Assembly: GCA_002633005.1 (NCBI GenBank) | Contig: NMRA01000564.1 | Coordinates: 1 to 64,000, forward strand | Direction: 5' to 3' | DNA from: Phoronis australis | Lineage: Eukaryota; Animalia; Phoronida | Length of the DNA stretch: 64,000 nt | Shown: positions 16,001-41,421 of the stretch, in pieces | Layout of the letters: each line of letters starts with the position of its first letter | Numbering within the stretch: the stretch's first letter is position 1 | Program-made: the position numbers and the translations under genes | Notes under the pieces: generated by a model | What the model saw: the letters and a program-made list of their open reading frames with translations, nothing else | What the model was told of the DNA's origin: nothing | Databases searched by the model: none

Positions 16001-19000
16001 TTGTGAAATTACACCTTATAAGTTACGAATGTTTTAACCTTTTTGTCATATAGCATGTTTTTTTCCAAAAAAGTGCCATGCAATTGCGGTGTAATTAAAA
16101 TGTAAGAACATACAATCAGTAGGCAATACAATGCCCGCTGAGTGGTCCTAAAAACGCTTTAAAATGTGACGAAATTTAAAGGTCCAACGTTACTAAATGA
16201 ATTTCTATTTTTATATTGTTAAGGATAATACCTCATTGTAGTCGCTATCTGGTGGATATCCAGTCGCCCATTCTCATTGTTACGCATTGCTTTTGTATTT
16301 CACTAAATTATTTCGGAGATAACAAATCTGACCGTAGCTGACCACAGATATGTTTTAAGCATATTAGATCTTGGGCAGTGTTGTAGGACTATCGTCTAAT
16401 TTCAGTGGCGATAGAAAAACTCCGTCAAAATAAACACGTGAGCTTACGGTTTTGTATGTACCTGAATGTGTGTAGCTGGACCCACCAAAGTGAAAGTGAC
16501 AAATGGAGGCGGGATAACGTATCAGCACAATCAGTCGATCACAGTGGCAGAAGGGAGTGAGCTTGTTTTCACGTGTACGTCAGATGATATCTATCCCCAT
16601 GGCAATCTAACGTGGACTGGTGGTGGACGGGTTGGAACCGTCATGAGGAACAGCACGCCAGACGGACGGAAGACTTTGTCACTGGAACTAACTGTTCAAG
16701 CATCTAGAGACTTGGGCACACTCACTTGCAAAGCTTTTGACGGCAGAAATGTGTCATTTGTTTCTGAGTCAAGCATCAAGCTAAAAATACTTTGTAAGTG
16801 TGATAAAGTTGTCACGAATCGTTCGTCACTCAGCGTAAATTGAGGTCTTTTGTGGAGAACAGCTTTCTCCCCCACGGTACATCAGTATCAGTTAGACCCG
16901 GTCAAACTAAACTGATAACGCAGCAACGGCGTTGGCACTGAAGCAACTGAATACAGCCAAAGATGTACGCGTGCTGCACAGGTCACGATTTTTCGTCCGG
17001 CAGGCAGGCAAATAGTTGTTGACCAGTCGTCGATCGGTCGGAGAAACAGCAGGCCGGTAGCAGTCCGCAGAGACAATCGCAGCGCCGACAACAATGCAGG
17101 CTGTAGAACATTTCCTTTAAAAAAACAACTGTTGACGTGCCACATCTGTTGCCTGTGTTTTTTGTATTTCATCGGAACTGACTGTATTAACGAAACGTTG
17201 CATTATTGCATGCGCAACTATAACCCTCAGCATGTGGTGATGATTTGTCACTTGTCTTCCATCGAAATTATGGGGAGCCCAGCTAATGACTCTTACTGGA
17301 CCGTTGGTTATCTAGTCCGAGTCGGCTGGCAGACAGGTCAAACAAAGACGCGTGACCCATGTTGAACCCATAAGAAATGGCGTAATAACACATACCGTAT
17401 GTATATATATATATATATTTCAAAATATATACCACCTTAAAAAAGATGAAGTGTAGTTGCTGTTTACTTCTAGTTCATCTGTACCTTTCTATTTCTTATC
17501 GAGTTTGCAGACCATTAGCAATGTTTGGATTGGTCCAAGCATGACAATGATGTGCGAGCTGGTAATGGCAACGTTATCCTAAATTCCTTTTACTCCAACA
17601 CATATGAAATGCGACCTGTCTTCTTTTCCGCTAGACGGACCTTTGTCGCTTACCATAGCTGACCAAAGTGGTGCACCTCTACCTAATACCTATACAGTTA
17701 TAAGTGGTCAACAAATCACTCTCCATTGCCTTACCGACTCCGTCTCGGACACCGGCGCTGTGTACTGGGAGAATGTTCCTGCTCAGCAAGTTACCAGACG
17801 AAAAGCCCTGGGAATCGGCAATGTGTTCTATAGGGTTGCTATTTTTACTCCAACGAGAGGAATGAACAAAGCTGTGTGCCGCTGTAGAGCACGAAACGTA
17901 GACGCTCCTCTAATAAAAGCCTATAAGTCGATAAGACTGAACGTGGTCTGTAAGTACCATTTCACTATTTGACTTGAGCCCGGGATCTTGAGACGCAGCT
18001 TCTTCTTTGTAATTTTCGGTGATCATTCTTCAAACGACTGCCTAGCGAATCATAGAACTGCCTCATAATGTATGTGGGTAGTTGCATTTAATTGTTGTTT
18101 TTACGTAATGATTGTCAAGTGGATCTAATAATCATTAAGGCGATAGACGCATGTTACCCACAATCAAAACATCTCTGCTGTGATCAGCAGCCACTGACGC
18201 AAATTCTTATTTTATTATATAGATGGACCAACAAAAGTAATTATAACACCAAGCGCTGGAACGTTAACTGAAGACGTGCATGTAGTAGACAGCAAATCCG
18301 AATATCAGGTCAAGTGTGAAACGGATGACGTCAACGAGCACGCCACAGTTCTGATGACGACAAACATAGACTCTGCTCACCATGTCAGAGATCCACTGAG
18401 CGGTCAAACCACACGCACCCTCCGATTCACAACAAGTGCATGGCAAAATGGGAGGTTTATCAAGTGTTATGCTGAGAATAGTCAATACCCCAACTTTTAC
18501 GCAGAGAAGCAATTAAATTTATCGGTTACATGTAGGTACATCTAGTTGTAGTTTTAGTTAACTAAACCCGATCCTCACGAATAACTTACGCTCGAAAAGC
18601 AATCTCGTGAGCCTAATTTGTTTCATTCTTTTAATTTGTGGATCAAGAAAGTTGAACGTTAGACACCTGATTTTATTATGTGTTAAACCAAAACTTAACC
18701 AGTGCGTCATGCTTTCAGTTGGACCTACTGAGGTAATCATTGCTAACGATGGATCTTCTAGTGGCACTTTAGAACCATCGCAAGCACGTTTCACAGCTGA
18801 AGACGGAGTTAGATATCGGATCAGATGTCAGACTGACACCATTAACCCTGAGGGATCAGTGCGCTGGACATTTCGCAGGAACACAGGCTGGGAAACGGGA
18901 TCCCATCATGTCCCTGGCATTGCCGGTGGAAAAATCTACACCAGCTTTTTCCATTTTGAGGGCCATCGATCACTGAATGGAATGGTTATCGCCTGCACTG

Positions 19001-22000: not shown

Positions 22001-25000
22001 AATTTTACAGCAGAAAAAACTATCACACTGGATGTAACATGTAAGTTGATTGGCAACTCTTGACAGAGATCCTGGTGACTGTTGACATTGAGGTCACTGT
22101 ATGCATATGTACTGTACTGCAAGGCTGCCGAGGTCACGTGTATTTGTTATATTTATATCTAAGAAGGAAGACAGTCATTTCATGTTAATGTGTTCTCGGT
22201 ACACGTATGCTATCATTGAAATCATAGATTATAAACAATAGATTCGCAACTCCGACATTTTCTTCCGTACTCTCCAAAATTATTTGGTTCATTTCCGGTT
22301 AGTATATTGTAACTGCAAATTCTCGCATCTATTTTACTGTCCAGAACAAAGAAAACAAAATAGCAATTTCGGCATTGAAACGCTGCTCAAAATCTTAAAA
22401 TAGTAGAAATATTGGTATCGCGAGTACTTTTAGCAATGCTACTATCACCCGACCACACAACAGCCGACCAAGATTGGCAGACGACGTACTGGCCAAAAAT
22501 AATACCAGATAATTTGGCCAGGTGTCGCTAGTGCATAATGACGTAACGTTGTATGGAAGAGCACGTACGGATTTCGTCCATTGAATGTATACGGTGTTGG
22601 CGGTCTATGTACTATAGTCTATGGTGAAATTGAGCATTTAAAAAGCATGTTACGCTACGTTGCCTTCCGTGGCAATGACAACATGACAATACCAGAGTAT
22701 ATGCATGACATGCATACGCTCATGCATTTGAACCGCAAACAAATCATAACGAATTTGCTATTTTAACAGCCCTTAAAGAGGCGTGGAACGCAAAATCTCC
22801 TCAAAGTAACTTGTAGACAATTCCTGGCGAATGTCCTCGCAATGTCTAGTACAGTGCAATTTACTTTCCCTTGTGAGAAAATGTCCAAAAAATGACAAAA
22901 TTTTTGAGATACGCGCGACGGAAAAACTTTCCAATCTCCCTCCCAATTATGATGCATGCGCGCATGTACTCACAGTCAGTTGCTTGAAGTCACTTGAGGT
23001 CAAATTTCACATACTCCATATAAGGAAAATGTGCTACGTCTATCTGTTGCCATACCAAATAAGGAGACGTGGTTCACCTTGTGGTAGAAAATTCGACGAT
23101 GTTGGGAGCAGTTGACAGTTCGTTTTTTTGAAATTTGAAGCTAAAAGAAAATATTTTGATATCAAAAGAATTTAAAGATCTTTACAAACAAACCCTAAAA
23201 ATACCTAGTGAGCAGGTTGAATTCTGTTTCAGTGGCAGAGAACCGTTTTCAATATTGCAATTATTTTAAGCTGTTTATCGCGTTCCAGGCCTCTTTAATG
23301 AGTATTTACGAGTAAGCACATCCTTTCCTTGATAGATGGTCCCACAAAGGTGATCTTATTTGAGGAAGCCAGTCAAAACCAGGACGCATACAAGGACACG
23401 ATATTGGTGGTTGATCAGCAATTTTACAAAATTAAATGCGCGACTGACGCCGTTCATCCTGCCGCTAGTGTGGAATGGACGTTTCCCGGAGACAAGGAAG
23501 TCGGTCAGGTGTGGAACGTTACCAATGCAAGCGGTGTACTATTCCACAAGAGCATCTCGTTTACTGCTAATTTGTTCCACAACGGGAAGACACTAACATG
23601 CGAGGCAGCAAACGTCAGAGATGTCCTGCTAAGTGTGAAGAAGAAGATGGCCATTGATGTCACATGTTAGTAAATGTAAATGTGCAACGAACGCCTATGT
23701 GTACAATGTTTTCCCCACACAACTTGGCGTGAATATTGACACGCTGAAAACAACTGACAGAATTCACTTATTCTGAATTACCAGAAGCTCTGGAACAGTA
23801 GGACCAATAGACGAGTAAATAAATATTGTTTCAACTTATTCACGAACGGATTCTCACAATAATTGAATGCACTCTATACCGTCAAATTTATTGCCAGGTG
23901 CTGGAATTGGTAAAAACTCTCAAAGGTGTTTTTCCAACATATGTAGTTCATGAAACTGAAAGTGCTGATAAAGCGCTGAATGAGTTGATAAATGTACTGT
24001 AAAAACAATTCATGTCACAGTTTAAAAATGTGACGGTTGTGTACTAGAATGTTAATTAAGGTACTATTTGTTTTGTCTTCGTAACAAACTTTTTTGCTCT
24101 AACTATAGATGGGCCTAAGTTTCTGGAGTTCATCGATCCTCAGGATAAACTTAAAAGCCACGGTACGTCAACAATCACAGTAGTTGATGGACAAGACATC
24201 AGCGTGGAGTGTCGCACGGATGGCGTGAACCCGGGCGCCTATGTGGAGTGGACAACTACAGATCACGTGACGCAGGATGATTCAACTAGAAATGGTTCCT
24301 TGACTGCTGCGATGGTCTATTCAAGGAAAGTCCACATTCTTGCCAGACCATCGTTAAACCTCCGAACTATTAACTACTCGTCATGGAACATTAGACATCA
24401 GCAGTTTCGCCTAGAACGTTCCTTACAGATTCGTGTTCTATGTGAGTTATTGCCATATTACGACCGTGATTTCGCTTCGCAAAAGAAAGATAGCAAAGGA
24501 AACGTCTACGAGTTCTCATGTGGCATTTTATACAACAACAGACGGTCTGGTCAGGATTGTGGCCATTTATTTAATATGCATGTTTACATCTCCATCCGAT
24601 GAGCCGTTTTCTATTAATTAGCAAAATATTAAAGCGCAAAATACTGCTGTATCGGCCAATCACGAGCATTCTCTATAAGCGAGCAGAATCTGAAAAGTTG
24701 TGCTATTAAAATGTAGCTTTGTCGAGATAAAAATGCAAGTCTGGTGTCATATGTTGGCTGAGGGAAAGAGATCATATTATGGAGATAGATTAAAAGCATC
24801 ACGAGCGTTGACATGTGAATTTGCGGAGACAGCTTACGTGTACCAGGCGTAACATTGCACTCTTTCACGATATCTAGCACTGTCGAATGTTGCATAACTT
24901 GGCTTCTCATTGGTTAAAGTAATGAGACCGATTTGATAACATTCAATCTTTCCCATTCGTTGAAATCTGCGGAGCCCCTTTCAATTTACAGTTACCGAGT

Positions 25001-28000
25001 ATGGCGACCACCTTTGACTTGATTAGTTGCATTTTATTATAACGGTTAGTAATCGAAGTAAACCGGCAAAAACAAGGGATCCTCGATACAGTGGCTTAAG
25101 CCCAAACAAGTATAGTGCATAAAGGCGTGTGCAAGTGATGGCGATGTGATAGGTATACTTCTGATCAAGGCATGCGCATTGATGCCCACACACGGAATTC
25201 CGTGTGTCGTTCATCATGTTTCCACCGGTTCATTTTTCAGTGTAGGTGGCGCTGTGTCAGAGGGTAGCATAACTTCTGCCTCCTGGCCGGAAGTTATCTG
25301 AGCGCTGCATAACTAATATCTTCTTAGAAGAATTTTGGGATTTTATGGTTTTAAGTCTGAAACATTCCGGGAGGCTCCACAGAACTGATAGCAATTCGTG
25401 CTGTTGTCGTGTGGATGTTTACCACTGGAAATTAAAATCATAAAACAATAAATGCCGATTGATACATGTATGCTCGATCATGTCAATAATTAAAACAACC
25501 AGGATAGTAATGGTGTAACGCTGTGACTCAAAGTGCTTCTCTTGGTCTTCTAACAGACTACGCACTGTTGCAGATGGTCCCGGCAATTTGACCATTTCAC
25601 ACACTGGCGGGATATTGGAAAACAGAACGTTTTACGTCACTGAAGGCGAAAGATACAGTCTCACCTGTTCCACAGATGATGTGTATCCGTCCGGAAATAT
25701 ATCCTGGATATATTCCATTGGAAATACAAGGGATCTTGGCATCGGTCACCTTAGCAACGGAGCACTAAATTATTCGTTGACCATCGACTTTGTTGCCAAC
25801 GCTAGTCAGAATGGTCTAGAACTCAGTTGTAAGGGAGTTAATAACGAAGCGAACTCGCTGAACAAAACGGAGACAATATTGTTGAATGTAACGTGTAAGT
25901 GATTCTTAATAACTGTATGGAACCCGAAAAGGTCTAACTTCCTGTGCAGACATTTAATATGTAAGGCATTTTAAAGCGTTCCTGCAATCAATTTTGCACT
26001 TTTTGATGTTTTAAAGACGTGTAATCTAATATTCAGTAACACAACATCTAAACTCACAACCCATTTTTAGCAAATAATTGAGGAATTTCAAACTTTAAAG
26101 AACAATTTAATTGATGATTTTTTTGGTTTCCCGCCCCGTGATGTCATCAGTGGAAGACGTTGATCTATTTACTGTTTATATTCAATGGTGGATAGTAGGG
26201 ATTTTGTAAGTTACAAAGACTTTGAGAGCAAGCATGATGAATAATATGAAGGCACGCATGGAGATGGGGGCTAAGACAACACTCAGACCATTATGTGAAA
26301 CAGACTTTGCGTGTTTGAGGCCGTACGAATTCAACCCTTCCGCCTCGGCATCTTCAGCGCGAGTGAAACCGAATCGAAGCATACAAAGTCTGCGGACAAT
26401 CGTGATTTCAGAGTGGTAAATAAAGCCTTTTTGTGAATAACAATTTAATTTTCTAACCAATACAGAGTTCAGAAATATATGTCTAGAACTGTAAGTCTAG
26501 GAAAAGTTTCACTCTGACTGTCACATACAGTTGAGAATAGCGGTCACTGATTTTATTTCTTCGAATGCAGAGTGCATTTCTCAGGAGTGATCATATCCAA
26601 TTATAGTGACGGTAACTGGAGTTTATTTCTGGTAAATGATACTCGTTTTTCTCTCGTCTGTTCCAAATTAATGATAGCTTTGTATCATTGTGATTTGTTG
26701 ATTATTTCGGTCCAGTGTCCCGACTCCAGCTTCTGTACCGGCTCCATTCGTGACCTCAAACTATTTGCGTGGAATGTATATCCCATTTTCTACTATTGTG
26801 CATTGACGTATATGTGGATAGCGTGCATTCTAACAAAATTTTAAAACAAGAATAGAGTAATGACATTATAATGCAGTCACATTCATTATCTCATTCACAA
26901 TTTGATGCTGAGGCCCACACTCAATATATGCCTGGCTCTGCGATCTGAGGTTCTTTTGGAAACAAAAAAACTAAATTGTCTGTCTGATTGCTATCACTGC
27001 ATCCTTCATACATGCAACTTTTCACAAAACTCATTCGAACTCAGTTTTCGAGACCACTACGATTGGTGTAGAACAACACAATGGCGGAGACCGGATCCAC
27101 TGATGACGTCACACAATTTTTTATTTTTCTTGCGTTTATTTCTTGATTAAAAGTACGCAAATTGAAAAGGAAATGCATAAGACGTATTACCAGAATTGTT
27201 CGTAACCATTATGTGAAGGATTTTATACCGTTGCCGAGAAACAGCACAATAATAATTGGGTAATTGGAATACTAGGGCTCTACATAAAGAACGGCAGCTA
27301 ATCGTTTGTAATGTTAAAAATATAACGGCTCTCGAAACACTGTATTTTCAGTCGGACCGAGTGCATTGGTTCTTTCTACATCTTCCTCGAGTTGCTTTGT
27401 CGACAGTGGCATTCTGTATATTGCTGAATACACTTCCTGTAGAATCGACTGCAGTACAACGCCATCTTGTCCGCTTGTGCTGGTCAGCTGGAACAGTTCT
27501 TCCGTTGGAGTCATCAAATCCCTAGATACCTCTCCTAAGCTGACTGAAAACTCTGGCCACGTTTATTCTCGTGTGATGGACTACCACCCACGGTCACCGA
27601 TTAAAGGCGTAACTGAGTTCGAATGCTCCGCCAACAACACAGTCAGTGGTCGTCAAGTTAGGTCAACAGTGTCGGTTCAGGTTGCGTGTAAGTTGTGTAA
27701 TATTTGGAACTGGAACTTGATTGCATTCGCAAACAGTGTTCTGTCAAAGAAACAAATTTGTAATTTAGTGAACTAACAATCATTGCCGTTCTCATGAATG
27801 TACAAGAGCTATATTTTTCTTCTTTGAACCAACAATCATAGTCGTTTTCATGAATTTACAAGAGCTACATTTTTTCTTTTTAACCTTTTCGAAAGTGAAA
27901 ATGGTCAAATTGTATAAAAAGTCAGCATTCATGTTACTGCACGTACGTATGATTCAATTATAAATGCTGGTGCTTGTCTGTACAATGACGTAGTAATGTA

Positions 28001-31000
28001 AAGCAAAGATTTTCAACAATAATACGTGTGTTATTTTATTTTAGACTGCATTAGCATAAATCATCATTTATTTAATATGTTTAATTTAGGAGATTGTTTA
28101 ACTTCCATGAGACCAGAACCTTTATAGAGATGTTTCCTTTTACACCATGTCTGCAAAACGTCCGATATGGTGGTTTATTTTTTTATTTCAGACGGGCCAC
28201 GCAGCTTACAACTAAGTTCCTTAGCGGGTAATCTTCAGCAATATAACGAGTCTCAATGGGGATTTGAGGTTTTTGACAACCAGACCTATATCTTAAAATG
28301 CCTCACCGATGCCGTCAAACCATCGCTGCTCACTTTCGACGTCACTGCCGACTTCGGTGAAGAAAAACCGATCGTCTCACTTCGGTCAGCACAGAAAAAT
28401 ATCTTTACGAAGGAACTTGTTTTTACGGCCACAAAAGAACATAATTTCAAGCAAGTCATTTTCCACGCAGTCAATGGTGTCGACAGAACCATGCATGCGA
28501 CTGCAGCTGTTACCATAAAAGTTATATGTGAGTCTTTATGCAATTTAAATGTGTTGCTCTTGAAGTGGCTATACCTAAGCGTTCCGTCGCTAAACAGCAT
28601 CTTGAGACAACGTATTTTAATTAAACCTGTCTCAAGTTACAGTTTTGCCAGGGCTTCGAAGGTACTCGCACTTCGTTACTGTTTGTTAACAGGGTCTAAC
28701 CAATAAGTACTGTACAAGGTGGCTTGCCGCGTCATAACGATTTATGAATTGAGTGCAGTGTCAGGTCTTTGCAAAACCCAGAAGTCACCATCCAATGAGT
28801 AAGTAACAAGCGGCCAGTTCATAGGGAAATTGTCAGTCTTTTGGATGAAACTCTCCGGGACCAAGACAAAAGACGTCACACTTGTGAGATCCATGCGACA
28901 GTCGTGAGCGCGTCGCATGGTTATCGCCTATTGTTTTCCTTTGAAAGCATGAAAATTTTGAGACGTCCAGTTGAGAAAACAGATCAAGTTTGAGTCTAAT
29001 ACTGGAATAAAAACTTACAAAAATTAGCGACGTTGCGTCCGCATCTCACGGACTTCAGTTTGGCTTGTGACGTTATCGTTATTCTGGCCAATTGGTGGCG
29101 TTTTGGCTAAACGGCGCGGCATTGACGTCAGTACACCATCCCATACGTGTAACAAATTGAATCGTAAACCGCCTCTTTTATTTGAAGAGGGACTCTCAAT
29201 GCCCTCATGGAGAGCTTCCTTTACACCCCTTTTGAACCAGTTATCCTCTGCCGCTGAAAGTGTGATGCACAAAAACCCTATCGATTACAATAGTACACCC
29301 TCAAAACTAAAAATAGCCATTTCTTTTAGACGGCTGTGACTTTTTATATTCTACAGTTTCAGAGCCAGTACGTTCCCGCTGTTCATTTCCAATTCCATTA
29401 CGCGGTGATCAATAGAACAACACTAAGACAAAAACATAACACAAGAGGTTACAGATTGTAGTAGGGACCCCTTCAGGCTTCTCAGACACTAGGGAGGTGT
29501 CCAGACTGGCGGGACTATTTCGAATCGTTGCTAGAGCTGACCATCTCAATGAATACAACAATCTAGCACGATTCTGCACCGCAAACATAAACACAGCGAG
29601 AGATCAAGTGAGACAAGTGTACACTATTCAATCTTAAAAATCTTCCTATTCCGCGGTATGTCAGGTCGCGATCAGCCAATCAGATTCATCATTAGCATGC
29701 AAGCTTTCAGATGTACAAAATTATACATGTGTGTACCGTAAGTACTTGGGAATGTATTGGAATGATCTACTTATCGTGATGCCTAATTTTTGTTTTCTTT
29801 TTGAGAAGTTTATCAAAGCACTTGAAAATCCCATGAACAAAAATAGAACTCAATACACTGACCTCTACTTTTCATAGTATTGACATTATTGTGCTTATGA
29901 GCTGAGACCTTTGTTTTCGTCAAACTTCAGACGGTCCAAGCAGAATTGCTCTCGTTCTTTCCGGTCAGAATGGACAATTATGGAAGTTGAGACTTGGCCA
30001 AGCTTACACTTTCGTTTGCGAAGTTGACGAGGTATACCCTAACGTCGCGTTTTCGTGGTTTCCACCCGGTGTTGCTCGACGTAGATCCAAAGGCAAAGGA
30101 CAGTTTGGAGGCGTATTGTACAAAAGCTATATGGAGAAGAACTTGACCAGCACCGACCATCACATTGGATGTGAAGCAAAGAACACCTATCACGAATCGT
30201 TTGCCTTAGAAGTGAACACCACAGTTTTTCATAAAGGTGAGCTGTACTTACGTGTTGGGATGGAAAATAACCTCAATGAATCCATTAGGGGTAAATTTGC
30301 TCAGCCTGGCATAAAAACACGGCATAGGACATATACACGTAGAAAAAAGGCAAATAGCTGACTTGCGAAATAGCCGCACGCTATTTTGAAATTCACTAAC
30401 CCGCCAAAGGACGTTCAAATGCCATGTAATGCGGACGGGAAGTTTCAACCTACTGGTTTAAAAGCCGGCAAATTCCACTGTTATCGGGTGAAATGTACTA
30501 ATGTCTTACAAGAAAAGGCAAACCTTTGGAATTGTTCCATATACATGTCCCTCTTAAAGGAAACAACGGCGACAAAGCAAGTAGCTGCGACTGATGAAAC
30601 GGTACAATTTCGATCCCAGCCGGTGTCAATAAGATAAAATAAGTCAATGAACATACAGATGTAAGCTAATCAACCAATTGGAGGGACTGACAGTGGAATG
30701 TATTGCTGTTTTAACTTAATGAACCATTACATGTATGTTGTCGTTGAATCTGTGTCCACCAAATCTGAGCCGGGATCAACCGGAAGTCACTATCGTGCTT
30801 CCATTACCGTAGAGAGCGCCAATATGGAGAGTCTTCTATTTTAAAAGGATCATGACTCAGAACATGATGGACAAAAACCTCATTAAAGTGATAACACTAA
30901 ATACAAATTCCGAGTTGCATTATCTTTCTTTTAGCTTTATTTGCATTTGGCATAATTTCTTGTACACACACTGCGTGTCGTGTTGTTGCTCTTTCCAAAG

Positions 31001-34000
31001 AACGCATTCACTCAATAGTTACAGCATTACCATTATTGGAGACGGCAGTTCCATCGCCGTTTTTTCACTGATAGAAAATGTCAATATCAGGAACAGAAGT
31101 AGCTCCGTGACCACGCCTCTAAAATCCAGTTAAGATACTCGCTAACTCGTGATCCTGGACAAGCAGGCATCAGACGCGGGTGCGCTGATTACCCAGACAC
31201 TGATCCGTCGGCGTGTTCGGAACTGGCATGTTTTTATGAAGCATTTTTGGCGCGTGTCTGCTGTTTTGGAACTCGGGACGTGAATTGTATTCGGTGGCTT
31301 GAACATCTACTATTCCCTTCAGTTGATGGTAGCTGGGGACTCTGGAGTGACTGGGACAATTGTACTGCATCGTGCGGGAACGGTGCCATCTACCGGCGGC
31401 GAACATGCGACAGTCCTGCACCACGTCATGGTGGGAGGATATGCGCTGGTGACAGCACACAGTCTGCCAGCTGTTCAGTGCCCACTTCATGCCTTCGTAA
31501 GACCTTATGTTTTGGTGGTGAAATGACGCTAAATATGATATTGCTTTAATAAAAACGCGTTTCAAATAGCTGATTTCTAACAATTGAAATTATTCTACAG
31601 TACGGGTGATCTCTGGATGAAATTACTATGTAAGCTAGTTTACCACAAAGTGATTTTAAATAGGCACGGAACGCAAAAGCTCGCCAAAAATGTGTTTTAA
31701 ATTATAACTGACGAAAGTACCATTTCGCAAAGTCTGGTACAGAGTAATTCCCTTTCCCCTGTGAGGGAATTTCCAGAATAAAATTACAAAATTCACGATT
31801 TTTGAAAATGCTCGAAGGATAAACTCTTTACTCACCACAGAGTTTCTTATCTCCCTCTGCGTTCATAGTAATTCGAAAAACACGTGACTGATAAGACGGA
31901 TATTAACAGCAGATTATCGTGCGTGATTGCACTCCGACTCTGAGGTTGACAGCACAGTATTGGGCAAGCCAATGAAGCAAACAAATTTCCAAAAAGAATT
32001 CCAAGTGTATATTAGAATATACTTGAATTCTGCAATACTTGTATAAATAATTTTAAGCAGTAAACACATCAGTTGCTTCTTAATCGGACTGGCTGCTGCT
32101 TGAATTGTTTTGTTAACATCAAAGGTCAAAAATTACACTTCCCATATAAGGGAAATGTGTTTTTGTATGTCCTGCCATTCTCAGCAAGGAGACATACTTT
32201 GCCGTTGGGAGAAAAATTGACGAAGTGGAAAGCAGTTGGCAGATCTATTTTAAATTTGAAACTAAACGAAAAATGCTTTGATATTAACAAAGATTCAAAA
32301 TTTTACGAAAAAAGGTAAAAAAATGCCTGCTGAGCAGGTTAAATTCTGTTTCAGTGGCTGAGAACCACTTTGAATATAGCAATTTAGTCTGCTTATCGCG
32401 TTCCAGGCCTCTTTAAGAGTGTCTATACTTATCAATCAGGCAAAGATTCTTTAAAATTACTACTTCAGGTCTGACTGACGGAAGCACTGCTCAAAACTGT
32501 CTTCGTATTAATTTTTTTAACAAATTAACTTAATATTCTAAAAGCAACAAAACACTGTTAATTAAGGATTACAGCCATGTTTGGTGACATGGTCTTAGGG
32601 TTTCTTCAACAATATATCAAACATGTACGTCAAAGAAGGTCTAACTGCAGCCATATTTTAAAGAGCCCTGGCACGCAATAAACATACTAAAATGCTATAT
32701 TGAAAGTGGTTCTCTGCTACTGAAACAAAATTCAACCTGCTCACCTGCTATTTTTAACGTGTAGGTTTGTTCGGAAAGATTTTTAATTTTTGTGGACTTC
32801 AAAGAATTTTCTTTTATTTTCAAGTTTCAAAAAGCGATATGTCAACTGCTCGCCACTTCTTCGTTTTTTCTCCCACAAGGCAAAGCACTTCTCCTTATTT
32901 AGTATAGCAAGACATAGATGAAGCAAATTTCCCTTATATGGGAAGTGTGGCTTTTGATTTCAAGCGACTTCAAGGAATCGACTGAACGCATGTGCGCATT
33001 TATCACAAGTCGTTGGGAGATTACAAACTCTCGTGGTAACCACAGTATTTCATTCGCGCGTATTTCAAAATTGTGAATTTTGTCATTTTTTGGACATTTC
33101 CTCCCAGGAGAAGGTGAATTACTCTCTACTAGACGTTGCAAGATCGTACTTTCTTAAGGAATTGTTTTGTGTTTTTAAAATGTCTATCGCGTGTTCAAAT
33201 TAAATACGTCTGTCTGTCTCATTGGGTATACGAAGGTTATGCTTTCTCCCGTGAACAATCATGTATTTCAGAGACATCTCCGTTGCTCGTGGGAAGCTTG
33301 ACAGCCGTCGTAATAATAGTTGGGGTTGCGATTTTGTTGATTATCGCGTGGAGACGCAAACGTAAGATACACCACGAGAAAGCCTTGTGCGAGGCTCCAG
33401 AGATATATGCTGGCGACAGGGGCGCAGAACATACGGAACTAGAGAAAAAAGTATTGAGTTTATCCCCATCGTTGCTGCAATCCTCCAATGAAGACCTTTG
33501 TATGACTGATAGCTTGGTAAACGTTGTAGATAGGCAGTCAGACTTCGTCAAACTAGGAGGAACAGTTTTAAATGAGACAGATCTGAAGAAACTGGGGGTT
33601 GATTTGTCGGTAAATGCACTTTCAGACTTGTCTCGGAAATTGGCAGTTGAAGTTAGTTCAAGGTCTACTAAAGAGTTGGAAACAGCATCTGAAGATAAAT
33701 GTTTGAAGCCTTGCAATCGAGGAAGTAAATCCAGCTTGCGACGGAAAAGCAATGACGAAGATCGCAAACCTTATGAAGGTATTTTGACGACGGCACGGGA
33801 TATTTTTTCTAAACTGAAAAGTAAAATAACTCCAATCAATGCAGACAAGCCAAAGCAGTTGACAGTGGACAACGGGAAAGGGCCTAAAGTTGATTTAACG
33901 GATGTCAAGCAAATCAACGCTGCCATATTTGGAGTACTAGAACTGTTTAAGTTTATTGGTATGGACATTTCAAATCTAAAAGCTGCAACACTTTTTGAAC

Positions 34001-37000
34001 AAGTTGAGCTGACGGAGCCTGTGGTGACACGGTGGGCACAAACGGTTGGAATTAATCTGGAAGAGATTTCACGCGTTAACTCAGCCACCGAAACAGAAAT
34101 GGAATGGATTCAAGATGCAGGTATAGAAATGCTAAAACGCGGAGGAATTGACATATCTACACAATTTGGAAGAAAATTGGGCAAAATGCCAGCAAATGGC
34201 ACGACTTTTCTCAAAAACATCGGCGTAGACCTGAGCAGGCATGCCCAAGTTAACTTGAAGGAGAACCATGGTCTCAAGATAACGCGAGAAATTGGAATAG
34301 AATTGTTGAAAATGAGAGGCTATGACGTTCGTAGAATCGCTGAATATAAATTGACTGTTGACGATTCGGCCTCAGCACAAAAGAATCTTCAAAATATGGG
34401 CTTGGATTTGAGGAAATATAGCAAACCCAGTATCAAGCCTAATGTTGACCTCCGAAAAGAGAGTATGCAGATAGCTAATGAGTTGCTGGTACAACTTCAC
34501 ATAGACATCTTTTCTAAACGTAAACTAAAAGTAAAAATAAATACATTTGATGAGCGCGAGCCCATTAACCAGGGAGATAAATTAATTATCAATTATCAGT
34601 CAAAAAAGGAAAGGATTTTACAGCAGTTTGGAATAGAACTCATTCAAAAAGCAGGTATTGACCTACAAAAAGCAATTGGAAAAAGCCTTAATGAAAGCCC
34701 AACTGTCGACATCCTGACACCAGAGGGCGTTAAGGCATTGGAAGAGGTAGGCGTACAGTATGCAAAAGTGGCGACTTGTGAACTTATATCTCAGTTCGAA
34801 ATTGACCTTCTCAGGTATGCCGCTATTCAATTGTTACTGCATGCTAACGTGGATTTGGGGTCTGCAACCAAATTTTTGTTAACTGGTGGATTTCCGACCG
34901 CGGTTTTAACGCCTCTTCTCAAGTTTATGGGCATCAGCTTAAAACGCAATGCGAAGGCTTTGAAAAGGGACAAACTCGCGAGCTCTATTACTCAGCAAGC
35001 TGGTATTGAATTACTGAAGAGGACCGGTATAGACATCACACAGTTTATTCAAACTGTATCAGAAAAGCGTCCTGAGGATACTAATAACCCAGAAGCGCGA
35101 CGAGTATTGAAAGGATGTGGCTTAGATCGAATTCAACTCGATATCGAAGTGTCGAAGTCCAAACATGAAGCTATTGGATTTCTTAGGTCAACGAGCTTGC
35201 GGCTCTTACGGAAGACTGGGGTCGATTTGGATCCAAGCTCAAACAGGCTCGTAAAAATGGTAGATATTCATACACCGTTAGGTAACGCACTTGTTAAACA
35301 TTTTGGTGTAAATTTTGATGTACTTGATAAAACAGAGCGCGTTGATAAACGAATGTGGGATAATATTCGATTAGCTGCATTTGAACTCCTCAAAACTACC
35401 GGAGTAGACCTTACCAAATTGGCTGACTTGGATATTAACCTAATACACAAGATCAATATACGGCAACACGAAACACGGCTTCAGGAAGTTGGAATTGACC
35501 TCAACAAAATGGATTTCACACGGACTACACACTTGGAAATAGACGCCATCCGACAGGCTGGGGTTGAGTTAATGAAACACGCAAGAATCGATATATCCAC
35601 GGCTAATCCTAACGATTTGATCGACAATTCTTTCCACGTAATATCTCCAGAAGTGAATGAAACGCTGAAACTTATGGGCATAGACATTGACAAGGCATCA
35701 ACGGTTTGCTCCAAAAGTCAAAATGAGAGAATGTTGATTTTGAAAGCAGGTATAGAAATTCTGCGGTTGACAGGAATTGACTTGCAAATGTATGTTAACG
35801 CCATAAAGTCTGAGTGTAAAAGTAATCAGAAGAGTCTGCCTTGTGAGATAGAGTTACTAAAGACTTATGGCATAGACCTTGAACGCCACGAGAGATTAGC
35901 GATGGTAGAACCATCATTGCTCGACTTAACTATGCAAGCGGCCATAAGGCTCCTTCAATCGACTGATATCGATTTGAGAAAGGGGGAGTCATGGAAATCT
36001 CCAAACGTTGAGCCATCGTCACTTTTGTCCGCTTTCTCCATAAACGCTCTCTGCGACATTGGTATTGATCTTGAAAGGCATGCCGAAATTGAGAAAAAAA
36101 CTCCACAAATATTTCATTTGACAGCGCGTGCCGGTCTAGAACTCATTAGACGAACTGGTGTGGATACTAAAAAAGTGGAGCATTTGTTGGGTGCCGAAGA
36201 AAAGAAGATCAATGAGATACTCACAGAACAGCGCTTAGAAATCCTTAGAAATGTTGGAATTGACATGCAACGGCACAACGAGGCTGACCTATCACTTCAA
36301 GATTTACTTGATATCACATTTCACGCCGGCATTGAATTGCTGAAGCGAGCTCAGATTAACCCCCAATTTATTCACGCAATCGTTGACGAAGCAAGCAAAC
36401 AATCATCGCAAACTGAAATGCCGGTGGAAGATCTTCTGAATCACCTTTTGTCGGTGGGAATAAACTTGCCGAAGCACTTAAGCACTGCTAACCATACGAG
36501 TATGGAATTGACAAAACTGGCAGGGGTTGAGCTGCTCAAGCACTGTGGAATCGACATAACAAAGCTGAAAGGATTCAGCTATAAACAAACTACTTTTTTT
36601 GACAAACCCTCATTATTGAAAAACAAGCAGCTTCCGGAACTAGGCATAAACCTACTAGCACAAACGAGAGAACACATGCGAGATCATTTGAGGAAACAGT
36701 TGACTAGACAAGCCGGGTTGGAATTATTAAAGCGCTCGGGCGTCAACTTAATTGCAGAAAATGACGAACTGGCACAGCCTAACATTTTTGACTTGTCTTG
36801 TCAATTATCTACTAACATTTTAGCCAGCATGGGAATAGACCTTGTCGCACATTCCATAATAGACTTATCTAAAAAGAATAACCTGCTGCTTACTCAAGAC
36901 TTGGGATTTGAGCTCCTAAGACGAACTGGAATTGATTTGCGGTACGTTAACTACAAAGATTTAAGTTCTCTGAGAGGATCGGTGGATATGAAAAAACATA

Positions 37001-40000
37001 GAGCAGACATGCTTGAAGTAGGAGTAGATATATCGATGAATCAGATGGCGTGCCTGCCGAAAGCAATTGTCTCCAACGTGACGAGGCAAATTGCATTAGA
37101 ACTTCTCAAACGTAAACAACTTCTGGACAATGAGTACACCACCACTGTCATTAAGAACGATTTAAAGGCTCTTGGAATCAACATATCAAAGCTTAATAGC
37201 ATGGACTTATCAAAGAAAAGGTTTATCGACCTGGCGCAACTGGCGGCAGTACATCTACTGAAAGAAACGGGGGTGGATTTGACTAGACTTGATATTAACG
37301 TTCTAAAAAGTCGCCGAAGAATGGATATTGAGAGCGAAAGCGCAATATCAAAGCTACTCAAACTTGGCGTTAATCTTCAAAGACACAGGGATTTGGATTT
37401 GGCGACCCACTTTGCGCTAGACGTCACGCGACAGGCTGCGTTAGAAGTTCTTAAGATAGGTGGAGTAGACCTTAAACCTGACGATGGTTTGACACTCAGT
37501 ATGATAACAGGGCTTGATTTGAAAACGGGCTTTGGAAAGCAGGTCATGAATGAGTTAGGTATTAACTTAGATCAGCTTAGAAATTCAGATCTGCCAACTC
37601 GGCTAATCGGTAATCTTTGCTTTGAAGCTGGTATCCAGCTTATGATGAGATCAGGCATAAATATGAACCCGCAGTTATTGTGTGATATTAAGTGCCTAAG
37701 CGGTAGATATTCTGCACAGGATATGTTCAAGCACCACGAAAACAGCCTTAAGCGTGTTGGTCTTGATTTAAGCAAACATCCAGGGCGCCGTTTCTTAGAA
37801 AAATGTGGAACTGATTCGGCGTGTAAGACAGGAATCGCGGTACTAAAACGTGCTAAGATTGACTTAGATCCAGGCATTTCATTGTTGCGCCTTGAGACAC
37901 CAGCGAATGTTACAGATCGATTAAAATTGATGGGTTTCGATCGATCATTTGACCAAACAACAGACACATTCACCTTGAAAGATAAAAGTGCAATCCAAGT
38001 TGTTGTCATGCGCTTGATGAAGATCACTGGTATAGATGTCAAACAACTTAAAACGCTTGATCTCAGTCAAATTAAAGTTGAAATGAGTCACTTGAAAAGA
38101 CAAGAAAATATTCGTATCGGAATAGATTTGTTAAAGTATCGCAAAGCTTTCCCTCTAAATATTGTGGGGAAACAAATAGCCTATATGGCTGGAACTGAGT
38201 TGCTTAAACGGACTGTGGTTAACTATACCACAGAAGATTACGATCGCTCAAACAGGTTGATGGGTGCTGACGTTTCAAGAAGAGAAGTTCATAGTATGTT
38301 ACTCAACATGGGAATCGACTTAACACTACACGCGGGCATTGAGATGAACGAAGAAAATTCACGACTCACAGCGGAAGCCGCGTTTAAAGTGTTGCTTAGT
38401 TTGGGTCTTGATTTGAAGAAATTTACTGAAACGCTTTCGGATGATGCACTCCAAAATAATATACCTAGGAAACTGCAGAAAAAGGTGAGCAAAAGGATAG
38501 GACTTGATTTAAAAACGTGCTTATCTTATAGGCTTTCCAATGCAACAGATGTAGTATTGCTAAGGGACGCTACCGCAAATCTATTGAAGTTTGCAGTCAG
38601 TATCAATGAGACGAGTGCACCTAAAGCGGAAGTAGCACAAGAACAAATCGTAAGAGAAACCAAGAAGACCGAGGACACTGTCGCTGCAGAAAAGAAGCTT
38701 GGTGAGCTGTTGAAGCATCTGGAAGAATCTGGAAATCGGTTGAAACTTTTGGGAATTGACCTATCGATAAAAAATTCATTGTCAGCCCCGAAACAAAACT
38801 GCCTGAGAGTAATTGCTCTCAGTGAATTGTTGCTCCACATGGGAGTTAGCGTCAGAAAAATTAAGGACGCCAAAATAGATGATGTCGAGGCGCATGAGCG
38901 AAAATTGTTGAAAAACATAGGTATAGACATGGACATTTTTGATCAAGGGTTTCCCATTATTAAAGGTGCAAAGCATGTACTCATACAAGCCGGAATAGAC
39001 TTACTTAAACGCTCTGGCATCGATCTCACCACGGAACAGTACCAACAAGTAAACAAGCTGACAGGCATCGATATGTTAACCAAATCGTATTTGGCAATCT
39101 TAAATAAACTGGGAATTGATATGGCTAGACATGCGAGAATCAGTCAGAACGGAGGCACGAGTGTTTTGACCAAGCACGCTGCTATTGAAATTTTACGGAT
39201 ACTTGGTCTTGACCTGAAAAAAATAACCGGGCTGTTCGCAGCTGGCCCTTGCACAGAGAGCCCATCAAAAGAAATGAAACAAGAAATCAAGAAGATTGGA
39301 GTAGATTTGGATATATGTTTGTCTCGTCCACTTTCTACTGGGTTGGATGTCTTGCTGCTAATGGATGTTGTGCTGACCTTGATCGCCAGCATTGACGTGA
39401 GACAAGGCGTAGCTTCACCAATGTCTTTAGATAAAACACAACCACCCGGTTCAAGTATTCAAGCCCAAGCGAAAGCAAGTGCGGCAAGCGAGTCAAGTGA
39501 ATCGAGCACAGAAGAAAGTAGCATGGATTCAAGTGAAACTGGGTTAACTGAAAAAACTCAAATCATTCACGACGAAACAATAGTAGATACGGCAGAGGAG
39601 TCAAGCACGGAAGAGGAGTCAAGCACGGAAGAGGAGTCAAGCACGGAAGAGGAGTCGAGTACGGAAGAGGAGTCGAGCACAGAAGATGGTGGAAGTGATG
39701 AAGGTATTAATATGACTTTTCAAGAAACTAAAAACATAACAAAAATTCAAATAAACGCATCATCGGACGAGGAAGTTGAAGCCAGTGAAGAAGAGACGTC
39801 GACCGAAGAAAGTGAAGATGATGGCAGCCCAACACTGACTGCTCGGGAAACTAAAGAGACAAGAACAAGATCAGATGAGTCAGACGAAATGGGGTCGACA
39901 AAAGAAGATGATAGAAGTGATGAGGCAAGTGAATCTAATGAAGAAGAGTCGACTACAGAAGATGGCGACAACGATGATTCTGAAGACGAAGGCGATCAGA

Positions 40001-41421
40001 AACCATTTAGACCAATACACTTTTTAAAAAAACTGTCGAGTGATCAATCCATACTGGAATATTTGAAAAGAACTGCGTTTGTTGATTTTTCAAAATGCCG
40101 CCCAGTGTGTGAGGAGGATGTCAAACTGATTAAGTCTGCTGCCACGTGGTTACTTCAGAGAAGTGGTGGCAAACAATCGTCTTTGAAAGATCTGATTCCT
40201 TCGAAGCCAGTCGCGATTACCGACAGACACCACATCGAGAGGTTAAAGCAAATGGGAATAGATATTAATGAGATGAGGCTGCTAAAGTTAGAGGAAGCAG
40301 ACGAAATACTTTTTGTGAAGCTGGCTGGGCTTGAGCTGTTGAATCGTGTTGGTATCAATACGAAATGCCATATTGAAGAGCTTGAAAGCGACAAAGATGC
40401 TATTCGTGCTTGCTCGCGTGTTTTGAAGAACACAACGATAAGCAAGTCGGACTTGCCAAAAAAGAAGTCTAAGTCCAGTGGCACACAAATACAAAATATT
40501 AGCGCAGGAGAATTAATGCGCAACTTTGGTGCAGAACTCCTAAAAAGAGCGGGGATTAATCCAACGCTTTTGCTCAACAATATGAAACCCAAAGTAGATT
40601 TGAGATCATCGAAGTGTATTACCAAGCTTAGAATGTTTGGCATAGACCTTGAAAAGCACGCAAGGAGTAACGTACACTCACAAGATGGGCATAATTTGTC
40701 GATTCAGGCAGGGCTAGAGTTACTAAAAAGAGTGGGCGTGAGCATTAAGAAGTTAAAAGGATTTGTTAAGCCGAAGCAAGTGGACGATCCAGTTCTACTT
40801 GCGGCGGGATTAGATTTAAAGACCCACTCAAAAATGGACCTAGGTATACCAGAAAACTTTGCAGTCACAAAAGAAGCCGGAGCTGAGCTTCTACGTCGAG
40901 CTTCTGTGAACGTGAAAAAACAACTTGCTTTCAAGCGTGCCAAACAAAAGATCCGGAACATAGACTTTGAGTCTGGTGTCGTTACTGAACAAATGAAAAA
41001 AATTGGCATCGACCTCGAAAAGTTTTCGAAGGGAAATCAGCAGACAACAGCAGGACGTGAAGTAAATCTCTCGGTAGGTCTTGAGCTAATTAAGAGGTCA
41101 GGCGTGACAAAAGATGTGTTGACTGAAATTCGTGCACTGGATTCATCTGACAAGTGCAATAAATCGGCAACGAAAGTGGGTGCATTACATCAAACAGAGA
41201 TCCCCATATTGCAATCGCGTTTAACTTCTAAGGGCGCCAATCCAAAGCTGCCAAAATATGAAATTACTAATCGCAAAAACAATAGAAACAGTCGTTCTTT
41301 GAACACGTCAAGTTCACAGGCAAATAAATTGTATGAGATTTCGACTGAAACTGCTGTGAAGAAGAAAACAAACACCAAAAAGACGCCCCCTGTTATTGCA
41401 TTCCTACGAGAACTTAATTGA
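10063..41421 (+). CDS. Giant single-pass receptor, 21 coding exons seen: Kringle-FTP(F-type lectin-like)-Kringle-15xIg-TSP1-TM-~2,700 aa repeat cytoplasmic tail (~4,700 aa; signal exon not located)
   Basis: Chain of AG/GT-bounded phase-1 exons that join in frame, each encoding a recognisable module; the terminal exon carries TM LLVGSLTAVVIIVGVAILLIIAW followed by RRKRK. Confidence 0.85.
10069..10332 (+). CDS. Exon: kringle domain 1
   Basis: TCY..G.KYKG..ACM.W..FCRN..PWCF..LCGIPKC (6 Cys); acceptor ccag (in-frame alternative tag gives start 10063); donor gtaata. Confidence 0.85.
11461..11661 (+). CDS. Exon: N-terminal half of FTP/F5-8C-like (F-type lectin fold) domain
   Basis: tttcag|..ENYLRG..ITDGDRNECFRT..VTHLRLT..|gtaag; 201 nt, phase 1-1. 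Confidence 0.7.
12596..12808 (+). CDS. Exon: C-terminal half of FTP-like domain
   Basis: HLKGFQVFL..C..LEC..IEICEVEAY matches the FTP C-terminal L-CEVEVY pattern; tttcag / gtatgt; 213 nt. Confidence 0.75.
13716..13991 (+). CDS. Exon: kringle domain 2
   Basis: ECL..GVGYSG..TCINW..HNYCRNP..PWCY..SCSIPVC; ccag / gtaagt; 276 nt. Confidence 0.92.
14810..15154 (+). CDS. Ig-like exon 1 (C2/CD80-like)
   Basis: YGP..LACTT..VRW..HNGDILSCEGKN; cag/gtaagt; 345 nt. Confidence 0.88.
15533..15862 (+). CDS. Ig-like exon 2
   Basis: GP..LICSTDSVSP..VKW..IRCRSTN; cag/gtaaga; 330 nt. Confidence 0.88.
16476..16793 (+). CDS. Ig-like exon 3
   Basis: GP..FTCTSDDIYP..LTW..LTCKA; tag/gtaagt; 318 nt. Confidence 0.88.
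17635..17949 (+). CDS. Ig-like exon 4
   Basis: GP..LHCLTDSV..VYW..CRCRARN; tag/gtaagt; 315 nt. Confidence 0.88.
18223..18531 (+). CDS. Ig-like exon 5
   Basis: GP..VKCETDDVN..QNGRFIKCYAEN; tag/gtaggt; 309 nt. Confidence 0.87.
18719..19060 (+). CDS. Ig-like exon 6
   Basis: GP..IRCQTDTINP..VRW..LNGMVIACTATN; cag/gtaggt; 342 nt. Confidence 0.88.
19689..20015 (+). CDS. Ig-like exon 7
   Basis: GP..LVCETDNVN..HNQRSMTCVAKN; cag/gtaagt; 327 nt. Confidence 0.88.
20477..20812 (+). CDS. Ig-like exon 8
   Basis: GP..LTCATDSVN..IQW..VVCSARN; cag/gtgagt; 336 nt. Confidence 0.88.
21415..21600 (+). pseudogene. Degenerate partial tandem duplicate of the acceptor and 5' third of Ig exon 9
   Basis: Aligns to ~21630-21840 (AGPASA-SPGNCVENGLEVTENNIAQI vs DGPASVTLLASTGNFVENRFEVTENNKAQI); small deletion, no donor. 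Confidence 0.8.
21750..22040 (+). CDS. Ig-like exon 9
   Basis: GP..ISCTPEGIN..ITW..IKCLAFN; cag/gtaagt; 291 nt. Confidence 0.88.
22222..22624. mobile_element. MITE with catagac..-type termini; partial copy at ~48488-48644
   Basis: catagattata..atagattcgcaactccg versus cggtgttggcggtctat..tatagtctatg; the 3' ~160 bp recurs in an ABCB intron. Confidence 0.65.
22777..23294 (+). mobile_element. Kolobok-like MITE (TTAA TSD)
   Basis: ttaa|agaggcgtggaacgc ... gcgttccaggcctct|ttaa. Confidence 0.8.
23336..23665 (+). CDS. Ig-like exon 10
   Basis: GP..IKCATDAVHP..VEW..HNGKTLTCEAAN; tag/gttagt; 330 nt. Confidence 0.88.
24109..24441 (+). CDS. Ig-like exon 11 (second canonical Cys replaced by Tyr)
   Basis: GP..VECRTDGVNP..VEW..INYSSWN; tag/gtgagt; 333 nt. 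Confidence 0.85.
25574..25894 (+). CDS. Ig-like exon 12
   Basis: GP..LTCSTDDVYP..ISW..QNGLELSCKGVN; cag/gtaagt; 321 nt. Confidence 0.88.
27352..27687 (+). CDS. Ig-like exon 13 (extra Cys)
   Basis: GP..IDCSTTPSCP..VSW..FECSANN; cag/gtaagt; 336 nt. Confidence 0.86.
27775..27885 (+). repeat. Tandem duplication, ~56 bp x2
   Basis: aacaatcat..tcatgaat.tacaagagcta.att..aacc occurs twice. Confidence 0.75.
28192..28527 (+). CDS. Ig-like exon 14 (second canonical Cys replaced by Phe)
   Basis: GP..LKCLTDAVKP..HNFKQVIFHAVN; cag/gtgagt; 336 nt. Confidence 0.85.
29110..29255 (-). mobile_element. Penelope-like element, GIY-YIG C-terminal fragment
   Basis: EDNWFKRGVKEALH..E.PS.NKRGGLRFNL..VWD resembles the WFERGVKEAI..PSLNRGGGLR tail. 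Confidence 0.75.
29931..30236 (+). CDS. Ig-like exon 15
   Basis: GP..FVCEVDEVYP..FSW..IGCEAKN; cag/gtgagc; 306 nt. Confidence 0.87.
31323..31496 (+). CDS. Exon: thrombospondin type-1 repeat
   Basis: VDGSWGLWSDWDNCTASCGNG..RRRTCDSPAPRHGGRIC.G..C; cag/gtaag; 174 nt. Confidence 0.93.
31660..32412 (+). mobile_element. Kolobok-like MITE, same family as 22777-23294 (longer variant)
   Basis: ttaa|ataggcacggaacgc ... gcgttccaggcctct|ttaa; 3' 300 bp similar to 23000-23294. Confidence 0.72.
32662..33170 (-). mobile_element. Kolobok-like MITE, inverted copy of the same family
   Basis: ttaa|agagccctggcacgc..; reverse complement matches 22820-23294 (shared spurious RKCPKNDKI ORF). Confidence 0.75.
33272..41421 (+). 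CDS. Terminal exon (8,150 nt): TM helix plus cytoplasmic array of ~35 novel ~60-65 aa repeats and an acidic tract
   Basis: tttcag acceptor in phase 1; uninterrupted frame to TGA at 41419-41421; recurrent GIDL / AGxELLKRxGIDL motif. Confidence 0.9.
39595..39684 (+). repeat. Coding minisatellite, 5 x 18 bp (EESSTE)
   Basis: gaggagtcaagcacggaa x3 plus two variants. Confidence 0.95.

Follow-up and report, generated by a model that had tools for sequence, protein, structure and literature searches.

A 64,000-nucleotide stretch of the Phoronis australis genome (GenBank assembly GCA_002633005.1, contig NMRA01000564.1, positions 1 to 64,000, forward strand), called the window here, contains a gene predicted to encode a surface receptor with kringle, immunoglobulin-like (Ig-like) and TSP1 domains and an exceptionally long cytoplasmic tail. 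The tail is encoded by one terminal exon and is built mainly from divergent copies of a two-part helical unit. From its sequence, this repeat could not be assigned to a known protein family. The combination of receptor and repeat array is apparently undescribed so far; the literature searched, mainly open-access papers without their supplements, gives no account of such an architecture or repeat. The tail may form a folded rod of helices without catalytic activity, serving as a tether or scaffold for partners beneath the receptor, a reading to which we assign a probability of about 0.5.

Positions 33133-41421 (+) form a single stop-to-stop frame of 2762 codons. The runner-up in the window encodes only 192 amino acids. 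Position 33272 is the first base 3' of a tttcag acceptor and the exon is in phase 1, so stops appear when it is translated from 33272 itself. The coding part of the terminal exon (33272..41421, +; stop codon at 41419-41421) has no stop over 2,715 codons and encodes a transmembrane (TM) helix, a stop-transfer sequence and a cytoplasmic tail of ~2,690 residues. The initial annotation described one exon of 8.15 kb. That length is right for the stop-free coding part, and the exon itself is longer: RNA extends to about 41700.

The single TM helix and the RRKRK that directly follows it lie at 33283..33366 (+). The helix corresponds to residues 51-73 of P0001 (Kyte-Doolittle hydropathy 2.96) and is the only TM-like segment without acidic residues. 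A second hydrophobic window, at residues 2071-2089 (hydropathy 2.12), has three Asp inside it and falls within a degenerate repeat helix. The tail of ~2,700 residues after one TM helix and RRKRK, as first proposed from the sequence, is borne out by this arrangement. The tail is placed in the cytoplasm on sequence grounds, because RRKRK follows the TM helix and because the densities of N-glycosylation sequons and Cys split between outside and inside. Sequons number 0.74 per 100 residues in the tail and 1.5 in the predicted ectodomain; there are 28 Cys in the 2687-residue tail and 58 in the 2003-residue predicted ectodomain.

The juxtamembrane segment (33367..34014, +; ~215 residues) is mainly non-repeat and contains one isolated half-unit at 33574-33654. 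Repeat block 1 (34018..39246, +) contains 27 copies of the unit found by hidden Markov model (HMM) and some degenerate stretches; degenerate half-copies after it run to about 39400. It is followed by an insert at 39430..40062 (+) that is acidic and Ser/Thr-rich (32% D+E, 31% S+T) and likely disordered. Inside the insert, an 18-bp tandem array encoding EEESST (39589-39686, +; 5.4 copies, 93% matches) is recent. DNA contigs end at this array and its copy number may vary. Repeat block 2 (40225..41142, +) contains five HMM-found copies and is more basic than block 1. The C-terminal 92 residues (41143..41418, +) are basic and Ser/Thr-rich, with 19% K+R, and contain one TEIP, which we take to be a candidate for an SxIP-like motif. 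Three matches to the ITIM (immunoreceptor tyrosine-based inhibitory motif) pattern occur in the long tail, all within the repeat blocks and as pattern matches only. No match to the corresponding activation motif (ITAM) was found in the tail by motif scan.

A seed profile finds 35 repeat stretches in the tail. An HMM built from 27 units finds 33 domains, 28 with both halves and 5 partial, of which 28 are N-terminal and 5 are C-terminal of the acidic insert. Shuffled tails (100 shuffles) give 0.13 domains per tail. Because 27 of the 33 domains had built the profile, leave-one-out tests were run. Each of the 27 units (10.3-56.1 bits) outscores all 200 shuffles of its own sequence, whose top scores are 4.1-12.7 bits. 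Two more degenerate half-copies are recognised by motif near residues 1790 and 2056, which brings the total to 33-35 copies. The repeated two-part motif that had been read by eye is therefore real, and the count made at the same time (~35 copies, 30 before and 6 after the insert) is close to the present one. No further copies occur elsewhere in the window in a six-frame HMM search.

By column, the consensus of the first half of the unit is L-x-x-[VML]-G-I-D-L-x-[KR]-H and that of the second half is [DE]-L-T-x-x-A-G-I-E-L-L-K-R-x-G-[IV]-D-L. The unit is ~64 residues long, within the 60-65 estimated in the initial annotation. The period in regular stretches is 62-67 residues, and the unit itself consists of two related halves of ~32 residues, each closing with a helix-G[IV]D[LI] turn. 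The Gly turns of the A and B halves lie 32 residues apart in 21 of the 27 units, with extremes of 30 and 33, and the step from B to the next A ranges from 19 to 35. Since the spacing within units is fixed and the step between them is variable, an A half and the B half after it make up the folding module, and what remains is linker. The A and B halves align with an HHalign probability of 93.9%, a value biased upward as both were cut at the shared motif. This suggests, at the sequence level, a ~32-residue ancestor of both halves.

The repeat expansion is old and, apart from the 18-bp array in the acidic insert, without recent block duplication, because units are on average only 22% identical (pairwise range 9-37), because this identity is independent of distance along the chain and because the unit tree is mostly unresolved. 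Identity is flat at 22-24% across lags 1-11, and the tree is star-like: of its 24 inner branches, 20 are open. The picture of old, highly divergent and stop-free copies is consistent with these results. The purifying selection proposed alongside it is supported for the long run, in which copies that are only 22% identical keep their hydrophobic pattern and a stop-free frame. Strong constraint at the present day finds no support in the five coding variants listed, among which non-synonymous changes outnumber synonymous ones 4:1.

In an AlphaFold2 (AF2) model of two units (126 residues), the mean predicted local distance difference test score (pLDDT) is 89.6 (86.5-89.6 across five models) and the predicted template modelling score (pTM) is 0.84. 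The alignment for this model consisted of 17 rows, which are non-overlapping two-unit windows from the gene's own repeats. Helices occupy residues 2-10, 15-20, 26-42 and 48-59 in unit 1 and residues 67-75, 80-85, 91-107 and 112-125 in unit 2. Each modelled unit starts with a helix of 9 residues; the GID turn, a short helix and a helix of 17 residues come next, and a second turn leads into the last helix. This is congruent with the description of the repeat as helical in the initial annotation. With mean moments of 0.17-0.37, the helices are amphipathic. In the long helix, more than half of the circumference is hydrophobic and an Ala-Gly is conserved, as in a buried core helix. Only two residues in the model are assigned to a strand or bridge, Ile 13 and Ile 78, each from the GID turn in the first half of its unit. 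As these are the only bridge residues and there is one per unit, they pair together by DSSP logic and the units touch through their GID turns. Adjacent units are thus predicted by the model to pack on each other. The linker between them has the lowest confidence (pLDDT 70-76).

Comparison of the two-unit model with solved or predicted structures gives no significant match. Foldseek against the PDB returns 0 of 198 at E<=0.001 (best E 1.3) and a search of BFVD returns 0 of 284 (best E 1.5), neither of which shows that the folds differ or that the fold is new. The same holds for VIA-align, in which 0 of 48,161 chains reach Z>=5; its best match is SMG1 (Z 4.8, root-mean-square deviation 4.4, 88 residues aligned). 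A second structure comparison gives 0 of 198 at Z>=5. The modelling and Foldseek check proposed at the outset thus yielded a confident two-unit model (pLDDT 90) and no significant structural neighbour. A bolder proposal, at somewhat less than even odds, is that the unit represents a tandem-repeat fold of a new class. In this class, four-helix units would be stacked around a spine of single-residue beta-bridges between GID turns to form a twisted rod of ~30 units, which one animal lineage would have invented in one exon as the cytoskeletal tether or spring of an Ig/kringle receptor.

The ~33 repeats of the tail are predicted to fold into units of four helices, each packed against the next; we infer that such stacking is continuous along each block. 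In the resulting rod, block 1, with ~27 units, would be followed by a flexible acidic hinge and then by a basic five-unit module and the basic C-terminus, far from the membrane. In this reading the protein is an adhesion or recognition receptor. Its distal basic module would lend itself to holding organelles or the cytoskeleton and could offer docking sites to several partners, in place of enzymatic signalling. No Pfam match to a kinase, phosphatase, TIR, death or ankyrin domain is present in the tail, as had been read from the sequence alone. One parallel in use is NompC, which has 29 ankyrin repeats, is microtubule-associated and has been proposed as a gating spring (PMC8186909, in the part consulted). 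As described there, NompC/TRPN is likewise a membrane protein whose cytoplasmic part holds helical repeats in tandem, about 30 of them. Unlike the tail, NompC is a tetrameric channel with 33-residue ankyrin repeats; here a single-pass receptor has a ~64-residue unit, and the analogy is one of use only. Giant-exon ankyrins, in the portion of PMC7401806 consulted, gain ~2,000 residues from one huge exon (3'-terminal in Drosophila) and act as extended cytoskeletal linkers. Their inserts are described in that portion as predicted to be largely unstructured, with 12-residue microtubule-binding repeats, in contrast to the folded, membrane-spanning arrangement predicted here.

The units could instead fold independently, singly or as closed pairs, on flexible linkers and unfold stepwise under force, as a shock absorber or mechanosensor within the receptor that we take to be like the talin rod. 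This bead chain is unlikely. It would account for the variable linker (19-35) beside the fixed unit core, for the low pLDDT of the linker and for the interruption of the array by degenerate stretches, and a closed pseudo-twofold pair would show the same bridge between units. However, pTM is 0.84 across two units although the alignment rows were paired in arbitrary register. There is also no odd/even alternation in unit identity (22.5% at lag 1, 22.7% at lag 2), which closed heterologous pairs might leave. Of the two shapes first suggested, solenoid or bead chain, the model favours helical units in contact and disfavours free beads.

It is distinctly unlikely that the tail is a clustering module, in which units bind like units on adjacent receptors and build a membrane-attached lattice in the manner of polymerising SAM domains. 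The units are in contact in the model and 33 copies would give high avidity, and the juxtamembrane L-x-E-x-D-L-K-K-L-G-V presumably resembles a SAM helix-turn. However, no SAM match was found for the whole tail, single units or double units in Pfam or among PDB sequences. The net charge of the units ranges from -5 to +7 with no common pattern, and surface positions are weakly conserved. The SAM fold itself has five helices, and the model shows four per unit.

It is improbable that the unit is a far-diverged relative of ankyrin, ClpN, the GidA C-terminal domain, B5 or a bacterial repeat of ~92-97 residues, perhaps through horizontal transfer into the intronless exon. Several matches point in this direction. 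GIDA_C_1st (PF21680) scores 30.2 bits over a cut-off of 24.7, B5 scores 28.1 bits on one piece of the tail, and Clp_N (PF02861) matches double units at E 0.0012 in 2 of 17. The ~32-residue half is also close in length to the 33 residues of ankyrin. These matches are sums of short turn hits. The GIDA_C_1st score is reached only as a whole-protein sum and drops to 20.5 bits on its own segment, and the family matches none of the 27 single units and only three of the 17 double units (best E 0.0011). The Clp_N match covers ~21 of 53 profile positions, is below the cut-off and is found in 1 of 27 units at E 0.1. For ankyrin, there is no Ank Pfam match and no TPLH-like column, and the best HMM domain on the tail scores 0.0 bits. 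HHalign gives 7.5-34.8% over 18 columns for ankyrin and 99.1% for a self-split control. No TPR, HEAT, ARM or PPR profile matches in Pfam scans of the tail, single units and double units.

In a HMMER search of all 1,835,955,588 representative proteins, the unit profile matches seven proteins at E<=0.001. Two of them are ankyrin kinases from diatoms, one is a Wolbachia SET protein with 43-46-residue repeats, three are bacterial-type proteins and one is a low-complexity protein. They are not taken as kin: each score adds up short matches to the helix-G[IV]D turn and the best single domain reaches 12.2 bits, whereas 26 of 27 true units score 21-56 bits. The bacterial-type proteins P0006, P0008 and P0010 contain the ~92-97-residue helical repeat, either by itself or in a fusion with a type III restriction-like helicase. 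The consensus of their repeat is PTxEQ...LG[IV]NLE...F.....KL...G[IV]D....T.DTI.TLA.KSGI...KIG......YRG, and no Pfam family fits it. The bacterial repeat is the nearest look-alike among the 1.84 billion representatives and shares repeated helix-G[IV][DN][LI] turns with the tail, and it differs in period, in turn spacing and in an extra YRG segment. HHalign of the double unit against it gives 95.3% over 71 gapped columns, for a match picked from a very large search; no other result speaks for kinship with this repeat. In the reciprocal direction, the bacterial HMM scores 2.2 bits on the tail (best domain 7.7), within the range of 50 shuffles (5.7 and 8.1). The repeat remains as unrecognised as the initial annotation had it, with only short turn-motif matches to its unit HMM.

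Other searches give no relative. In word-index searches, residues 290-2700 find 0 of 7985 candidates among proteins of 1519-4834 residues, and the unit profile finds 0 of 7997 among proteins of 108-2000 residues. Among PDB sequences, the tail has 0 matches at E<=10 and the unit profiles reach best E values of 0.42 and 0.24. PHROGs and NCBIfam give nothing near significance or cut-off, Rfam gives no match, and tblastn against phages and plasmids gives no match. In scans of contigs for close relatives, 0 of 387 pattern matches are confirmed in metagenomes, 0 of 241 in prokaryote genomes and 0 of 16 in viruses. The ESM Atlas gives no usable match, with low recognition that makes this result uninformative. 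An ortholog with tens of units would score far higher than the matches found, and the family is therefore missing from the searched library.

Two informative RNA runs from one study, X5 and X6, were used at about 18-19% of each run and mapped from position 23200 onward only. The terminal exon is covered in 12 of 12 bins (5.1-13.4x in X5, 5.2-16.5x in X6), with nearly all reads on one strand. Bins that consist of about half Ig exon have 1.0-6.4x, and the repeat-free intron bin 30471-31131 has 0.35-0.56x. At 31462, in the TSP1 exon, there are 12 reads in X5 and 6 in X6. The convergent ABC-transporter gene downstream serves as a strand control and shows the opposite strand. Run X7 has 0 reads on the exon and 0 on the 3' end of the ABC gene, and 2 of its 1175 reads are at 99%+ identity; it is treated as uninformative and not as a sign of tissue specificity. 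No Met is present between the upstream stop and the TM helix in the frame, so the TM helix is translated from an upstream exon. The data fit one spliced mRNA that carries the ectodomain and the tail, because the TSP1, Ig and tail exons are on the same strand, in the same samples and at similar depth. Expression of the exon and the presence of Ig and TSP1 exons upstream in compatible phase 1 support the initial annotation.

It is decidedly improbable that the giant exon does not belong to the kringle/Ig/TSP1 protein as drawn, with another upstream exon or a minor isoform in its place, or that the array is under relaxed selection. A small exon may hide in the repeat-rich 1.8-kb intron upstream of the tail and the expected junction is not among the listed joints. 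Four of the five listed coding variants are non-synonymous, and a neighbouring paralog has a stop after its TM helix. However, the phases match, the splice sites are canonical, and depth, strand and samples are alike for the TSP1, Ig and tail exons. There are also 2,715 stop-free codons, and no indel falls in the frame among the 12 of 14 indel rows listed. Association of the helices with a membrane or lipid droplet, which we assume would resemble that of perilipins or apolipoproteins, is very improbable: the helices are amphipathic and block 2 and the C-terminus are basic, but the model is confidently globular, the Gly-Ile-Asp turns and 32-residue spacing are fixed and exact, and hydrophobic residues occupy more than one face of the long helix.

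Several observations weigh against the folded rod and the scaffold role. Gaps of 117-184 residues separate aligned units in several degenerate stretches, and a rigid rod would be interrupted there. The model, built on a shallow self-alignment, spans only two units, and a closed bead of two units agrees with it as well as an open stack does. Five units modelled by AF2 from a single sequence give no confident fold (pLDDT 34.6). The scaffold role is proposed from anatomy, by analogy with NompC and with giant-exon ankyrins. No ortholog was found with the HMM among the 1.84 billion proteins, from which the gene's own protein is likewise missing. The 31496->33272 junction is not seen among the 15 of 138 joints listed, which are DNA-contig joints. 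Both informative RNA runs are from one study, and X7 has no exon reads. Among the 40 of 306 variant rows listed, the coding variants are 4 non-synonymous, 1 synonymous and 0 stop. These five are too few to measure selection, and they do not support strong current constraint.

Upstream of the terminal exon, 20 predicted exons, all phase 1-1 and stop-free, encode a kringle, two unassigned segments, a second kringle, 15 Ig-like domains and a TSP1 domain. The predicted ectodomain is ~2,000 residues and the whole protein ~4,720 residues without the signal exon. Candidate signal peptides occur at 8113, 8158 and 8513 in a crude scan only. Kringle exon 1 (10069..10332, +; Pfam Kringle E 1.5e-12) is putatively linked to the gene, and kringle exon 2 (13716..13991, +; E 2.6e-10) is predicted to be part of it. 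Between them, two small predicted exons (11461-11661 and 12596-12808; together 11461..12808, +) have no meaningful Pfam or PDB match; the second is presumably similar to one half of an F-type lectin or F5-8 domain, the C-terminal one. The 15 Ig-like exons (14810..30236, +) are C2-set-like, with one domain each in phase 1-1. Ten of the 15 match an Ig-family Pfam profile at E<=0.11 and three are above the curated cut-off. The exons at 24109-24441 and 28192-28527 (+) are without the second canonical Cys and may have no core disulfide. The TSP1 exon (31323..31496, +; phase 1-1; Pfam TSP_1 E 8e-11) is followed by gtaaga after 31496, the predicted donor to the TM exon.

The best solved match of the joint Ig profile is SYG-2 (4ofy; E 2e-16), and an insect protein named hemicentin-1 matches at E 3e-5. 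Profile search finds no close relatives of the Ig region. By sequence, these remote matches are taken to give a fold class and not orthology. Like nephrin/SYG-2-like C2-set receptors of the Ig superfamily (IgSF), the predicted protein has tandem Ig domains, one per phase-1 exon, followed by one TM helix. Unlike them, it has added kringles and TSP1 and a repeat tail of ~2,690 residues. As a rule, Ig receptors with a single TM helix signal by way of a short tail or a small number of familiar domains.

A short-tailed paralog lies upstream of the receptor gene. Its 3' end (3965..6015, +) contains a TSP1 exon at 3965-4138 and a TM/short-tail exon at 5468-6015. Its TSP1 domain is identical to that of the long gene at 33 of 57 residues (58%). 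Paralogy is accepted mainly because of this similarity and the shared order of a TSP1 exon and then a TM exon. The 155-residue tail has no repeat copies and contains an ITIM-pattern LVYDSL and YVNP. It aligns with the juxtamembrane part of the long tail at 29% identity over 62 residues (E 2e-4), a marginal similarity, with a score of 69 against 68 for the best of 500 shuffles. In the TM exon, an in-frame TAG immediately follows the TM helix, where the long gene has Trp, and the tail beyond it is open. The TAG may be a recent nonsense allele, the end of a tail-less receptor or an assembly error. No repeat remnants are found near the paralog by tblastn. Most likely, the array was gained after a short-tailed state in one old burst of intragenic duplication, with the direction of change inferred.

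The TSP1 exon of the paralog is present twice: over 425 bp, the copies at 551-975 and 3750-4174 (+) are 98.6% identical in their DNA, and position 2515, which lies between them, is an N. The exon may have been duplicated in tandem recently, or the assembly may have doubled it across the gap. An inverted repeat of about 420 bp with 74% identity lies at 7377-7798, between the paralogs, and is probably a transposon relic. Downstream, a multi-exon full-size ABC transporter gene (about 41700-64000, -; Pfam ABC_tran, ABC_membrane) is convergent with the receptor gene; we take its sequence to be P-glycoprotein/ABCB1-like. Its RNA starts right at the end of the receptor 3' untranslated region, near 41700. 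A 93-bp tandem repeat of 2.9 copies (60571-60842) lies within an intron of this gene.

Clustered IgSF paralogs are also present in the Hydractinia Alr complex. In the part of that study consulted (bioRxiv 10.1101/2022.03.04.482883), they have one domain per exon, tails that are more divergent than the ectodomains, ITIMs in some members, and pseudogenes. The likeness is by analogy only and lies in the clustering, with an ITIM-pattern and a premature stop in the Phoronis paralog. The tails described in that part of the study contain ITAM/ITIM motifs and, unlike the receptor here, no repeat array.

The finding is limited to one gene in one species. If it is true, the tail would add a new repeat family, and possibly a new repeat fold, to the intracellular toolkit of animals. 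Its small size, low Cys content and confident model make the unit directly accessible to tests of structure and mechanics, and it is a possible natural template for repeat-protein design. The short-tailed neighbouring paralog and the long-tailed gene would form a before-and-after pair for the origin of a large folded array within one exon.

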